The notes under the pieces are model-generated. The model ran no database searches, was not told where the DNA came from, and saw only the letters and a program-made list of their open reading frames with translations. Both the position numbers and the translations under genes were made by a program. Shown here piece by piece: positions 12,189 through 15,720 of a DNA stretch of 64,000 nucleotides. The stretch lies in contig CAVUZH010000016.1 in the NCBI GenBank assembly GCA_963745835.1, positions 256,001 through 320,000 on the forward strand, given 5' to 3'. The stretch comes from an uncultured delta proteobacterium. Its GTDB lineage: Bacteria; Desulfobacterota; Binatia; UBA9968. The first letter of the stretch is position 1, and each line of letters opens with the position of its first letter.

Positions 12189-12587
12189 ATGGCCATCCCC
12201 GGAGAAAAAGCAATTCAAATGGTGCGCAACGCGCATACGCAGGCAACGCAGTTGGACATCGCGGTTACGGCGGTAGTTGTTGATCAGAGTGGCCGAATGA
12301 TCGCGCTGGGCAGAATGGACCGGGCTCGTCCGATTACCGTAGAAATCGCCCTGAACAAGGCCTACACCGCCGCCAGTTTTCAGCAACCCACCAAGGAGCT
12401 CGCCGGAGTCGCCGGCCAAACATGGTTTCAGAGCCTGGTCGTGTCAAGCAACGGACGCATCATGCCGGGGGCGGGCGCGCTGCCAATTGTTGAAGGCGGC
12501 GCGGTTGTCGGCGCGGTGGCGGTGGCCGGCGGCACCGAAGATCAGGACCAACGCTGCGCTGAAGTGGCGTTGGCGTCGTATGCTTAA
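12189..12587 (+). CDS. GlcG/HbpS (haem-degrading/PduO C-terminal-like) family protein
   Basis: AVVVDQSG..RMD, IALNKAYTAA, GALPI...VGAVAVAGG...QDQRCA. GGAGG at 12171-12175. Confidence 0.88.
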   Translation: MAIPGEKAIQMVRNAHTQATQLDIAVTAVVVDQSGRMIALGRMDRARPITVEIALNKAYTAASFQQPTKELAGVAGQTWFQSLVVSSNGRIMPGAGALPIVEGGAVVGAVAVAGGTEDQDQRCAEVALASYA

Positions 12588-12672: not shown

Positions 12673-13995
12673 ATGGCAGTGACTTTAGGGAAAACAACCG
12701 AATCAAACCAAAGCGCACACACTAAAGCAGACACCCCCCCGCCACCCTACCTCGGCCGCTCGGTCCGCATCGTTGGACCGGTGGTAAATGTCGACATGAA
12801 TCAGTCGCCGCATCCGAAAAATCAGCGCGGAGAATTGGGCAAGCCTCTTTTCAACTGGTATCACAACACCGTCTCCAAGGATCCTCTGACCCGGGTTTCG
12901 GCGCCAAACCATTTTGCCGACCGTCGCCATTTTCTCAGCACCATCATCAATCAGGCCACCAAGGGCAAGGTCAATCCGAGAAAAATAGAGGTGCCGGATG
13001 CGGCGGCGATGTCGCGCCACATCAAAGCGGTCGCGCATTACATGGGCGCCGACGTTGTCGCAGTTGCCCAAGCGCATCCATCCTTCCTGTACGCCGGCAG
13101 CCGCTATGTTCAAGACGGCACCGCAGAGGACGCCTATCAGGAAACATCGCCGACGGACCTTGTGAAGAAATTCCCCTACATCATCGTCGCCACCACTGCC
13201 TGGGATTACAACAAGCTTCAGGCGCATCGTCACCTGATCGGCGATGCCGCGTATCACGTCTCGCAAATCAAAGGCAACATGATTCTGAAGGCCCTGGAGG
13301 GCTACATCAAAGAACTGGGCTATACGGCGTTGCGCGGCGTCTGTACGCCGCAGGCCGCCGGCGTCGCTTCGGGAGTCGGCGAACTCGGGAGAAACGGGCT
13401 GGTCATCAACAAGACTTACGGGGCGCGCATCCACATGCCCGATCCGATCATGACCGACCTTCCTCTGGTGGCGGATCAGCCGGTCGATAATGCCGTCGAA
13501 GATTTTTGCAAGATTTGCCGGAAATGCGCTAACACTTGTCCCACCAACAGCATTCCGTTCGGCGATAAGGTCGTTCATAACGGTATCGAGAAATACAAGA
13601 TTAACTGGCTCACCTGCTACAAGTTGCGGCCGTATGTGCACGATTACTGGGGCAGCTGTCTGACCTGCGCCACGGTCTGCCCGTTTACCAAACCCAATGT
13701 CTGGTGGCACAGCCTCGCTACATGGTCTTTGCGCACCTGCCCGATCCCGGCGCGGCCCGCGCTAGTCCACGCGTTGAAATGGATCGATGACCGCTTCTGG
13801 GGAGTTGCGCGTAATAATCGCGTGCGCTGGCTCGGCTACGATTCCGGGATCAAGCCGGGAGATCAGGCGTGCACCGTCGCCGGCTGCAATGCATCGCATG
13901 AGGGAAAGGGGCCGGCCAAAGAAGTGGCCGGCAACGTCGGTTACTACGCGCCACTAAAAGAGAACACGAACCGGTTCGTCAAGCGGGATGCCTAG
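12673..13995 (+). CDS. Reductive dehalogenase (RdhA)-like cobalamin / 2x[4Fe-4S] protein, cytoplasmic type
   Basis: HIKAVAHYMGADVV, YIKELGY, GVGELGRNGLVI, TDLPLVADQPVD, FCKICRKCANTCP and C-x13-CLTCATVCPFTK. No twin-arginine signal. AAGGAG RBS. Confidence 0.85.
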   Translation: MAVTLGKTTESNQSAHTKADTPPPPYLGRSVRIVGPVVNVDMNQSPHPKNQRGELGKPLFNWYHNTVSKDPLTRVSAPNHFADRRHFLSTIINQATKGKVNPRKIEVPDAAAMSRHIKAVAHYMGADVVAVAQAHPSFLYAGSRYVQDGTAEDAYQETSPTDLVKKFPYIIVATTAWDYNKLQAHRHLIGDAAYHVSQIKGNMILKALEGYIKELGYTALRGVCTPQAAGVASGVGELGRNGLVINKTYGARIHMPDPIMTDLPLVADQPVDNAVEDFCKICRKCANTCPTNSIPFGDKVVHNGIEKYKINWLTCYKLRPYVHDYWGSCLTCATVCPFTKPNVWWHSLATWSLRTCPIPARPALVHALKWIDDRFWGVARNNRVRWLGYDSGIKPGDQACTVAGCNASHEGKGPAKEVAGNVGYYAPLKENTNRFVKRDA

Positions 13996-14621
13996 TGACC
14001 TTGCGATTGGGTCCGTTTAAACTGCCCGGGCTGAGACGAGATCCTCATAAGAACGATCCGTACTGGGATTTCTTTCTAAACACGCCGCCGGCGGATCTCG
14101 ACAACACAGTGACCGAGCTGATCCGCAATGCTCCGCCCGGCAATGTTTTTCCGACCAAGGCTGATATCCACACACCGGAGATTACCTCGAGCCATGTCAA
14201 AGGAATGGCTCACTACTTCGGCGCGGATCTGGTGGGTATCGTAAAATTACCGGCGCACAACCCATCGCCCTCGCCTCTCCCGCCAGCCGCGGATGGTAAG
14301 ATCGAAGAAGAATATCCCTTCGGAGTCATCTGCGTGGTTCGCGCTGAGTACGATCCACGCACCGCACCGGGCATTGGCGGGCAAGTGCCCGTGCAGAACG
14401 GGCTGTTCATTACCTTCGTACTGAGCGCGTGGATCAGGGAGCTCGGCTTTCGCGCCAAGGTCGCGCCCGAAACTAATGGCGAGAAGCTTGCTGCCGTGGC
14501 CGGTTTGGGCGAGATCAACGGGGACGGCCGATTAGTGACTCCTCAGTACGGCGCCGATGTTCATGTGATAAATATCATTCTGACAGATCTGCCACTCGCC
14601 GCAGACGGCACACAAATATGA
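13995..14621 (+). CDS. RdhA-like cobalamin-binding-fold protein lacking the Fe-S domain
   Basis: HVKGMAHYFGADLVGI, WIRELGF, AGLGEINGDGRLVTPQYG, ILTDLPLAADG, then stop. The GTG start overlaps the upstream TAG (TAGTG). Confidence 0.75.
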   Translation: MTLRLGPFKLPGLRRDPHKNDPYWDFFLNTPPADLDNTVTELIRNAPPGNVFPTKADIHTPEITSSHVKGMAHYFGADLVGIVKLPAHNPSPSPLPPAADGKIEEEYPFGVICVVRAEYDPRTAPGIGGQVPVQNGLFITFVLSAWIRELGFRAKVAPETNGEKLAAVAGLGEINGDGRLVTPQYGADVHVINIILTDLPLAADGTQI

Positions 14622-14626
14622 AAGCT

Positions 14627-14705
14627 GTTCCAGTCGTTCCAATAGTTCCACTCGTTTATGGGTTAGACAACCTGGAACAGTTGGAACGGTTGGAACAATT
14701 GGAAC
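14627..14705. repeat. Inverted array of 9-bp tandem units
   Basis: GTTCCA at 14627/14636/14645 and its complement TGGAAC at 14673/14682/14691/14700. Confidence 0.85.
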
Positions 14706-14730
14706 GTATCTTCATGCGCAGCGAGAACTC

Positions 14731-15393
14731 ATGCCCTACGTGATCACCAGCCTGTGCACCAATGACGGAGCGTGCGTTGACGTCTGTCCGGTCGCCTGCA
14801 TTCATACGACACCGGGAGCGCCGCAATTCTACATCGACCCTGAAGTATGTATCGATTGCGAGCAGTGCGAAATCGTCTGCCCCGTGGACGCAATCTTCAA
14901 AGACATCGATATTCCGGCCGAACATCAAACTGCCATTGAGGTCAACGCCGCCTTCTTTCGCAAAAACAAGGCAGCCGCCGGCCCGGTTTCCTTCGAGACC
15001 GCTTGGCAGATGATCCGCGCCGCGCATGATTACGCGCAGATTATGGGAATGGCGGTGACAGCCACCGTGGTCGATGAGGCGGGCGGGCCGATTGCCGTGG
15101 GGCGAATGGATAGTGCCGAACCGATGACGGCAGAGCTGGCGTTTAATAAGGCTTATACCGCTGCCGCCTTTCACGTCGCCACCGCCGAACTGGCGCCACA
15201 AGCGCGGCAACCGCGATTTCACAGCCTGACGATGTCCCATCGCGGTCGCATCATGCCGGTGGGCGGAGCTATTCCGATCATTAACGGCGTGACCATCGTT
15301 GGCGCCGTCGGTGTGGCGGGTGGGAGCCGCCCGGAACAAGATATTCTCTGTTGCCGCGCCGCGCTCGCGGTCATCGAAGGCCACGGTCACTAA
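14731..15393 (+). CDS. Dicluster ferredoxin fused to a GlcG/HbpS domain
   Basis: N-terminal MPYVITSLCTNDGACVDVCP...YIDPEVCIDCEQCEIVCPVDAIF (FdxA-like). C-terminal VVDEAGG..RMD, NKAYTAA, VGAVGVAGG. Confidence 0.88.
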   Translation: MPYVITSLCTNDGACVDVCPVACIHTTPGAPQFYIDPEVCIDCEQCEIVCPVDAIFKDIDIPAEHQTAIEVNAAFFRKNKAAAGPVSFETAWQMIRAAHDYAQIMGMAVTATVVDEAGGPIAVGRMDSAEPMTAELAFNKAYTAAAFHVATAELAPQARQPRFHSLTMSHRGRIMPVGGAIPIINGVTIVGAVGVAGGSRPEQDILCCRAALAVIEGHGH

Positions 15394-15411: not shown

Positions 15412-15720
15412 ATGTACCTCGTTCAACTACTCTTACCGCTGTACGATAATTTGAACGCCCGATTTCCGCCTGAGGCCTTCGATTGTGTGCGGCAAGAGCT
15501 AACCGAGCATTTCGGTGGGGTCACGGCTTTTCTGCGTTCACCAGCTCAAGGGTTCTGGCGGATAGCCGAGAACGCCATCAATCGCGATGAGGTGGTTATC
15601 TTTGAAGTGATGACCGATGAACTAAACCGGCGGTGGTGGGATGGATACCGAGCAGATCTGGAACAGCGCTTCAGGCAAATCGAACTGGTGATCCGGGCAA
15701 GCTCGATCGAGAGGCTCTAA
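15412..15720 (+). CDS. Conserved-looking hypothetical protein, 102 aa
   Basis: LLLPLYDN, FGGVTAF.RSPAQGFW, LEQRFRQ pattern, recalled from a widespread uncharacterised small family. Starts 18 nt after the previous gene. Confidence 0.7.
   Translation: MYLVQLLLPLYDNLNARFPPEAFDCVRQELTEHFGGVTAFLRSPAQGFWRIAENAINRDEVVIFEVMTDELNRRWWDGYRADLEQRFRQIELVIRASSIERL

Follow-up and report, generated by a model that had tools for sequence, protein, structure and literature searches.

A stand-alone paralogue of the corrinoid-binding RdhA core: candidate second subunit of a reductive dehalogenase-like enzyme in Binatia

Gene content of the locus

The stretch of DNA analysed here (the window) comprises 64,000 nucleotides (nt) of contig CAVUZH010000016.1 (assembly GCA_963745835.1), positions 256,001 to 320,000 of the forward strand, from an uncultured delta proteobacterium of the class Binatia; all coordinates below are those of the window. 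Between 12189 and 15393 four genes lie on one strand (+), and the third of them, at 13995..14621, encodes a protein of 208 amino acids (aa) that is named RdhA' here. RdhA' is a diverged paralogue of the corrinoid-binding (nitroreductase-like) core of RdhA, the product of the gene directly upstream, and stands alone, without the iron-sulphur (Fe-S) domain and without the catalytic tyrosine. It is co-inherited with the ferredoxin-HbpS-like gene that follows it and with RdhA proteins that form a clade of their own. We favour, with moderate confidence, the reading that a cytoplasmic RdhA-like cobalamin/Fe-S reductase has RdhA' as its second, non-catalytic subunit, much as a preliminary description of the locus, made from the sequence alone, had proposed.

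The first gene of the cassette in Binatia relatives encodes an HbpS-like protein (DUF336; GlcG, PduO-C type), here of 132 aa (12189..12587; Pfam PF03928, E = 4.3e-28). The second (12673..13995) encodes RdhA, an RdhA-like corrinoid/2x[4Fe-4S] reductase of 440 aa with matches to the NCBIfam family TIGR02486 (E = 5.8e-41) and to Fer4_7. As the preliminary description had it, the open reading frame (ORF) of RdhA' occupies exactly 13995-14621, begins with GTG and overlaps its neighbour in the pentanucleotide TAGTG (13993..13997, direct reading), the first base of the RdhA' gene being the G of the TAG stop codon of RdhA. The fourth gene (14731..15393) encodes a 220-aa fusion of an N-terminal FdxA-type ferredoxin (Pfam Fer4, E = 4e-13) with an HbpS-like/DUF336 domain (PF03928, E = 5.7e-30), called Fdx-HbpS-like below; its match to NCBIfam FdxA_Actino (E = 5.9e-21) is below the cut-off of that family. 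The fusion protein is a candidate electron donor or tetrapyrrole-handling partner.

Comparison of RdhA' with RdhA

Four pairs of corresponding motifs had been proposed for RdhA' and RdhA, and all are found in the translations: HVKGMAHYFGADLV / HIKAVAHYMGADVV, WIRELGF / YIKELGY, GLGEING / GVGELGR and TDLPLAAD / TDLPLVAD. BLASTP aligns RdhA 82-268 with RdhA' 33-204 at 29% identity over 193 columns (E = 1e-18), and a profile-profile comparison of the two families gives a probability of 99.96% over 195 columns (E = 5.1e-39). Against TIGR02486 (RDH), RdhA' scores 50.9 bits (E = 2e-13), under the cut-off of 160.35, and a Pfam search with RdhA' returned nothing at E <= 0.1. The protein does stop where an Fe-S domain would begin: it ends 4 residues past TDLPLAAD (197-204), and in RdhA the first cysteine of CxxCxxCxxxC is residue 279, 11 residues past TDLPLVAD (261-268).

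The catalytic parts are largely missing. RdhA' contains no Fe-S motif and a single cysteine, C113. Val133 occupies the alignment column of Tyr426 of the structurally characterized enzyme NpRdhA, and in the profile-profile alignment RdhA' lacks, through a deletion of 4 residues, the 'DAAY' segment in which the counterpart of this tyrosine lies. The consensus of the RdhA' family at this position, GIGGQxPVQNG, likewise contains no tyrosine. E237 and R240, invariant in RdhA (in GELGR), are not retained; the RdhA' consensus reads GLGxLN, and the window has G175. Measured by the features of the RdhA family (TIGR02486), RdhA' thus falls short in its Fe-S motifs, in the catalytic tyrosine (NpRdhA Tyr426 / PceA Tyr246) and in its score, and belongs by its core fold. 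Other motifs have been kept. A169, G170, L171 and G172 as well as T197, L199 and P200 are near-invariant in the RdhA' family, and these motifs are also conserved in catalytic RdhA proteins; His190 (14562-14564) shares its column with NpRdhA Lys488 and with RdhA His254 (13432-13434). Because AGLG, TDLPL and His190 are retained, RdhA' is less degenerate than the vestigial domain of NpRdhA.

The upstream partner RdhA

RdhA has what is expected of a reductive dehalogenase: the core fold, two Fe-S motifs (beginning at residues 279 and 329) and an active-site tyrosine and arginine. With 141.4 bits it is under the TIGR02486 cut-off and is therefore a divergent member of the family. The candidate active-site residues are Tyr194, His254 and Arg319; in the HMMER alignment Tyr194 is one column off NpRdhA Tyr426, Arg319 matches Arg552, and His254 replaces Lys488. 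The nearest solved relative is NpRdhA (E = 5e-27, over NpRdhA 332-616), and RdhA has no vestigial domain of its own. In NpRdhA, the binding of substrate and halide depends critically on Lys488, according to a passage of PMC7565698. Judged by the alignment, the histidine found in this column in both paralogues hints at an altered chemistry or substrate.

The C-terminal tail of RdhA (residues 379-440; window 13807-13992) is conserved, carries the motif GYYAPLKENTNRF and is predicted to be disordered, with a predicted local distance difference test (pLDDT) score <50. Past the last cluster motif the tail has a median length of 102.5 residues in RdhA proteins with an RdhA' partner vs 64 in others. 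The PLKEN motif is present in 22 of 24 partnered RdhA proteins, in 0 of 29 others and in 117 of 120 close homologues. This tail is a candidate contact with RdhA'.

Conservation of RdhA'

RdhA' belongs to a sizeable family of short proteins. It numbers 1467 relatives (114-364 aa) in a database clustered at 90%; the top 120 of these measure 167-241 aa, and the named ones among them are annotated as 'hypothetical protein', apart from two annotated as 'epoxyqueuosine reductase'. When 1.84 billion representatives of all lengths were searched with HMMER, 267 matches were obtained. Full-length stand-alone members of ~190-215 aa occur down to 31% identity, and in a language-model atlas 26 of the 30 nearest clusters consist of unnamed proteins of ~190-220 aa from Binatota and Chloroflexota.

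The RdhA' genes have been under purifying selection, with a median ratio of nonsynonymous to synonymous substitution rates (dN/dS, NG86) of 0.107 (range 0.051-0.206; 56 usable of 78 pairs from 13 loci). The neighbouring genes have medians of 0.089 (RdhA), 0.036 (HbpS-like gene) and 0.090 (fusion gene). RdhA' also keeps its length and its stop position: the protein ends exactly in ...ADG in 9 of 13 loci, and in about 39 of the 43 complete metagenome ORFs the stop codon lies 0-8 residues past the last aligned profile position. Homologues that continue into an Fe-S domain would have marked the window's copy as truncated, and a search for longer homologues of RdhA' yielded six matches and no credible fusion; the all-length search likewise yielded none. 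Low dN/dS, the conserved stop and the lack of a credible longer form in these searches together rule out a pseudogene, and the view of RdhA' as a strongly diverged, conserved protein, not a recent partial duplication, is borne out. One predicted protein, P0391 (403 aa), joins the C-terminal part of an RdhA to residues 1-85 of RdhA'. Part of its interior resembles none of the relatives and both of its ends are cut off, and it is therefore read as an indel-ridden gene call, not as a true RdhA-RdhA' fusion.

Gene linkage and distribution

The neighbourhood of RdhA' was compared in two sets: 15 loci on genome contigs from Binatia-type metagenome-assembled genomes, and 80 loci on metagenome contigs, found with a 7-sequence alignment of distant family members. 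Among the genome loci that reach far enough, RdhA is directly upstream in 14 of 14 and the Fdx-HbpS-like gene downstream in 14 of 14, and the HbpS-like gene precedes RdhA in all 13 loci that extend to that point. The overlap TAGTG is retained in 10 of 13 loci, including the window; L007 and L009 differ, and L011 has TAGGTG, in which the two genes are adjacent and in the same frame. The arrangement in L011 points to coupling by proximity rather than by frameshifting, and together with the absence, by eye, of a slippery site it rules out a programmed frameshift or read-through.

In the metagenomes the stand-alone RdhA' is present in 55 of the 80 loci. Where more than 300 nt of upstream sequence are available, an RdhA-like ORF ends at the start of RdhA' in 44 of 46 loci; the exceptions are L089, where the upstream RdhA frame overruns, and L091, where RdhA is 2.9 kb away. 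Where more than 300 nt of downstream sequence are available, the Fdx-HbpS-like gene follows in 43 of 43. The upstream HbpS-like gene is found in few of these distant loci (L083, L089, L119 and L123), and no further neighbour is conserved beside the module, the next gene family being present in 5 of 55 loci. The other 25 loci contain full-length RdhA-like genes without RdhA', several of them cut by contig ends, and just one of the 25 (L142) shows a match, a weak one, to the Fdx-HbpS-like gene. In a marine clade an ORF of 65-72 aa lies just 5' of RdhA' (L091:3223-3438, L094:146-343, L098:1912-2106); it resembles the N-terminal segment of RdhA (profile positions 21-66) and is always frame-shifted by one base.

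In a sample of the class, a match of stand-alone size (E <= 2e-65) is present in 41 of 401 genomes, or in 39 of 399 when the unpublished genomes G728 and G780 are set aside. The matches are confined to one family (f1) and its sister (f113), with 0 of 333 genomes from 18 other families. In an even sample of the phylum the stand-alone form occurs in the genome of the window only. Contigs from RNA libraries bridge the RdhA/RdhA' junction in 4 soil libraries from 4 studies and are 90-97% identical to the window; one of them, of 2012 nt, extends from the HbpS-like gene to position 14419 within RdhA'. These contigs are compatible with co-transcription; they do not prove a single transcript, strand or expression level, and DNA may be present in the libraries.

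Structural models and related systems

Models of RdhA' and RdhA were made with AlphaFold2 (AF2), searched with Foldseek and re-aligned with VIA. The model of RdhA' (pLDDT 80.8) matches PceA at 2.9e-9 and NpRdhA at 6e-8 in Foldseek. On re-alignment NpRdhA ranks first, and the part that matches is its vestigial N-terminal domain: RdhA' 25-206 superposes on NpRdhA 38-221 over 162-164 residues, with Z 16.1-16.7 and a root-mean-square deviation (rmsd) of 3.1-3.3 A; among five NpRdhA entries Z is 16.1-16.7 in three and 14.6-14.8 in two, the matched range being identical throughout. The PceA cores give Z 14.3-14.9, QueG ~11, MMACHC 7.7 and CblD 7.3. For RdhA (pLDDT 75.7), residues 25-412 superpose on NpRdhA 269-682 with Z 33.9 and rmsd 2.9-3.4 A over 343-350 residues, vs Z 29.4-31.6 with PceA. 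The two gene products, matching NpRdhA 38-221 and 269-682 respectively, together tile NpRdhA.

NpRdhA (PDB 4RAS, 6ZXX, 6ZY1) belongs with BhbA and JtRdhA to the catabolic (cytoplasmic) reductive dehalogenases, and RdhA shares its catalytic fold. The vestigial domain of NpRdhA, as characterized in passages of PMC10463259, cannot bind cobalamin, mimics the monomer-monomer interface of PceA and makes NpRdhA monomeric; the same idea appears in a passage of PMC12219181. The background on which the preliminary description had drawn is correct in this respect. Like NpRdhA, the system described here includes a second, Fe-S-less copy of the cobalamin-fold core, namely RdhA'; as in the cytoplasmic enzymes, no twin-arginine motif was seen by eye at the N-terminus of RdhA, and among the conserved neighbours in the metagenome loci there is no gene for a membrane anchor. 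Unlike in NpRdhA, the extra domain is the product of a separate downstream gene rather than an N-terminal fusion, and it retains more of the core motifs than the vestigial domain does. RdhA also differs from the catabolic enzymes in lacking the C-terminal PDOR reductase domain, the gene being followed instead in the operon by the ferredoxin-HbpS-like fusion, and from NpRdhA in its His254 at the position of Lys488 and in a score under the TIGR02486 cut-off.

The respiratory enzyme PceA (PDB 4UQU, 4UR0; RDH complex 8Q4H) has the core fold common to RdhA and RdhA'. Extrapolating from the interface described in part of PMC10463259, the face through which PceA monomers meet would serve again in the proposed heterodimer. 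PceA consists of two identical, fully catalytic subunits, whereas in the proposed heterodimer RdhA would be joined by a paralogue of half the size and without catalytic activity.

MMACHC (CblC) and MMADHC (CblD) (PDB 9MRS, 3SC0, 5CUZ) offer a further parallel, that of a B12-binding nitroreductase-fold protein with a separately encoded paralogue; a complex of the two is given in the PDB title of 9MRS. CblD itself, unlike CblC, is not known to bind B12. The likeness is one of architecture only. Identity is 10-14%, and neither protein has an Fe-S partner domain or is a dehalogenase. Some single polypeptides from the metagenomes share with the RdhA/RdhA' pair the principle of two cores in one functional unit: in P0200 (685 aa) two whole RdhA units, each with its own set of Fe-S motifs, stand in tandem, and P0184, L145:186-1964 and L148:330-2183 (592-617 aa) have an Fe-S-less N-terminal domain before the core, which the RdhA' profile matches at 73-80 bits.

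Phylogenetic analysis

The relationships of 109 core domains were analysed by neighbour-joining (NJ) bootstrap over 198 columns, a method weaker than maximum likelihood and here applied to saturated distances; the partial matches P0236, P0243 and P0258 and the internally deleted RdhA' of L108 were left out of the tree. RdhA' forms a clade with 96-98% bootstrap support, and so do the partner RdhA proteins (99-100%), while the sisterhood of the two clades receives only 22-26%. The paired distance matrices of RdhA' and RdhA are correlated (r = 0.77, 22 pairs; 0 of 5000 permutations reach this r), and RdhA' evolves 1.43x faster than the core of its partner.

The N-terminal domains of P0184, L145 and L148 have a mean distance of 1.07 to their own cores vs 1.69 to RdhA', which suggests separate duplications, and two-core architectures seem to have arisen several times. 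The RdhA' clade takes in the N-terminal domain of the NpRdhA-like protein P0229, which is probably a long-branch effect, with distances saturated at 2.10. On the whole, catalytic cores are at least as close to RdhA' as the N-terminal domains of the fused forms. The preliminary description had regarded RdhA' as the unfused intermediate on the way to the NpRdhA architecture. This part of it finds no support, because the gene order is the reverse of that in NpRdhA, with RdhA' downstream and the NpRdhA domain N-terminal, and because the RdhA' clade is weakly placed in the tree; nothing marks RdhA' as a precursor of the NpRdhA domain.

Possible function of RdhA'

The conserved adjacency, the overlap of start and stop codons and the co-diversification of the two proteins are consistent with the proposed RdhA/RdhA' heterodimer. 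Termination and reinitiation at TAGTG would give roughly 1:1 synthesis of the two subunits. RdhA' would pack on the core of RdhA at the place taken by the second monomer in PceA and by the vestigial N-terminal domain in NpRdhA, and the product would be a soluble, pseudo-symmetric heterodimer with one active site. The PLKEN tail of RdhA, predicted to be disordered alone, may fold onto RdhA'. The ferredoxin domain of the downstream fusion protein would deliver electrons to the Fe-S clusters of RdhA, and the HbpS-like domains may handle tetrapyrrole.

Several observations weigh against this proposal. Adjacency, coupling and co-diversification are equally expected for neighbours that never touch. 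The structural preference of RdhA' for the N-terminal domain of NpRdhA over PceA amounts to only 1.2-2.4 Z units. At the sequence level, the catalytic core of NpRdhA receives 45.4 bits from the RdhA' profile vs 33.4 for the N-terminal domain, so that the N-terminal domain is not singled out; the expected fit to that domain, proposed in the preliminary description, is therefore upheld by the model, for which it is the best match (Z 16.7), and goes the other way by sequence, where the core scores higher. At L091, in the marine clade, RdhA lies 2.9 kb upstream of RdhA' with two genes between them. The correlation of PLKEN with the presence of a partner is confounded by phylogeny, since the partner RdhA proteins form a single clade. 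Finally, with AGLG, TDLPL and His190 in place, RdhA' might still bind a corrinoid, as far as conserved residues are a guide.

Other explanations of RdhA' are given here in order of decreasing probability. The first, which we consider unlikely but worth keeping in view, takes up the last point: RdhA' would bind a corrinoid or another tetrapyrrole and, together with the two HbpS-like proteins, carry the cofactor, load it into RdhA or provide a second cofactor site, by analogy with B12-trafficking proteins of the same fold. The near-invariant residues of AGLG (169-172), T197, L199 and P200 and the retained His190 would suit such a role, and so would the fold that the RdhA' model shares with MMACHC and CblD. 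According to passages of PMC4923194, haem is a ligand of both HbpS and PduO-C, and HbpS also binds aquo-cobalamin. The genome of the window (G000, 97.1% complete) gave no match to CbiC (PF02570), contains CobS and has six B12-binding domains over the cut-off, which suggests corrinoid salvage rather than de novo synthesis; acquired corrinoids are probably needed. On the other side, RdhA' lacks the entire Fe-S domain and the C-terminal parts found in every catalytic relative, as well as E237 and R240, and its best structural match is the very domain of NpRdhA that part of PMC10463259 describes as unable to bind cobalamin. Moreover, Z scores of 7-8 to MMACHC and CblD are in the range of a shared general fold.

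A related and quite doubtful possibility extends to the whole cassette. RdhA' and the Fdx-HbpS-like protein, whose genes are strictly co-inherited, may together handle the cofactor and the entry of electrons in a soluble B12/Fe-S reductase of three components that is widespread among soil and marine bacteria. RdhA' would then be more than a scaffold and would have retained a tetrapyrrole site (AGLG, TDLPL, His190). The substrate need not be an organohalide, which the histidine at the Lys488 position and the score of RdhA under the family cut-off would allow.

A third and improbable explanation makes RdhA' an electron-donor adaptor that docks the Fdx-HbpS-like protein onto RdhA or regulates it, with or without a role in a pseudo-dimer. 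The strict co-occurrence of RdhA' and the Fdx-HbpS-like gene at all 43 informative metagenome loci fits this idea, as do the lone weak match at L142 among the 25 loci without RdhA' and the lack of any other conserved neighbour (5 of 55 loci for the next family). The same co-occurrence may, however, simply reflect the inheritance of one three-gene module, and contig ends cut several of the 25 loci.

By far the least probable, and close to untenable, is that RdhA' is a truncated relic left by partial duplication, or else the C-terminal portion of an RdhA-RdhA' fusion made by frameshifting or read-through: the composite P0391 and the overlap of the two frames at TAGTG could be cited for it, and against it stand the dN/dS of 0.107, the 1467 relatives of near-equal length, the conserved stop (about 39 of 43 metagenome ORFs), the stand-alone members down to 31% identity, the frame relation that varies (TAGGTG in L011), the lack of a slippery heptamer by eye, and the fact that the pattern of P0391 is expected from indel errors.

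Returning to the second-subunit reading, to our knowledge reductive dehalogenases are known in two forms, homodimers such as PceA and monomers with an internal dummy domain such as NpRdhA. The locus described here would represent a third solution, a split-gene variant of the pseudo-dimeric architecture in which a gene of its own, tightly linked to that of the enzyme, encodes the dummy domain. In metagenomes from soil and sea, RdhA' is conserved over identities from 96% to about 31%, always with the ferredoxin-HbpS-like gene alongside, and the RdhA/RdhA' pair is widespread yet unstudied in soil bacteria. If the heterodimer exists, a two-core assembly would be a general requirement of this class of enzymes, and the pair would offer a natural split system in which the need for a second core can be studied. 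Heterologous expression of these abundant soil RdhA-like enzymes probably fails without co-expression of RdhA' and perhaps also of the Fdx-HbpS-like protein. RdhA' escapes entirely from metagenomic surveys based on counts of rdhA. It has no Pfam family, and any names it carries among the matches listed are 'hypothetical protein' or, twice, 'epoxyqueuosine reductase'.

Neither a split RdhA/RdhA' pair nor the present operon is described in the main texts searched. In the same search no publications were found on reductive dehalogenases together with Binatia, or linking reductive dehalogenases with DUF336/GlcG/HbpS, and the passages retrieved from the literature on Binatota dehalogenases mention dcmA and dhaA only.

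Other features of the locus and genome

The spacer between RdhA' and the fusion gene contains a palindrome (14625..14706) built of 9-nt units, three of GTTCCANNN and four of TGGAACNNT, arranged as inverted repeats. It folds as RNA at -45.4 kcal/mol (z -5.09). The unit array has 156 matches in the genome vs 0 for a reversed control, so the palindrome is a dispersed repeat, similar to repetitive extragenic palindromic (REP) sequences and with a 9-nt periodicity, and is not specific to the operon. In an RNA-library contig from a relative, other letters replace the stretch 14625-14706.

Downstream of the fusion gene, an ORF of 102 aa on the same strand (15412..15720) is of unknown family, with no match in Pfam or among the metagenome loci. 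By sequence identity it is conserved in the closest relatives only, at 97-100% in L004, L005, L006 and L012. Finally, the genome of the window carries a second, short RdhA-like gene away from the operon, on contig C18 (L003:1339-2244), which encodes 301 aa, includes an Fe-S region and matches TIGR02486 at E = 2.7e-34.

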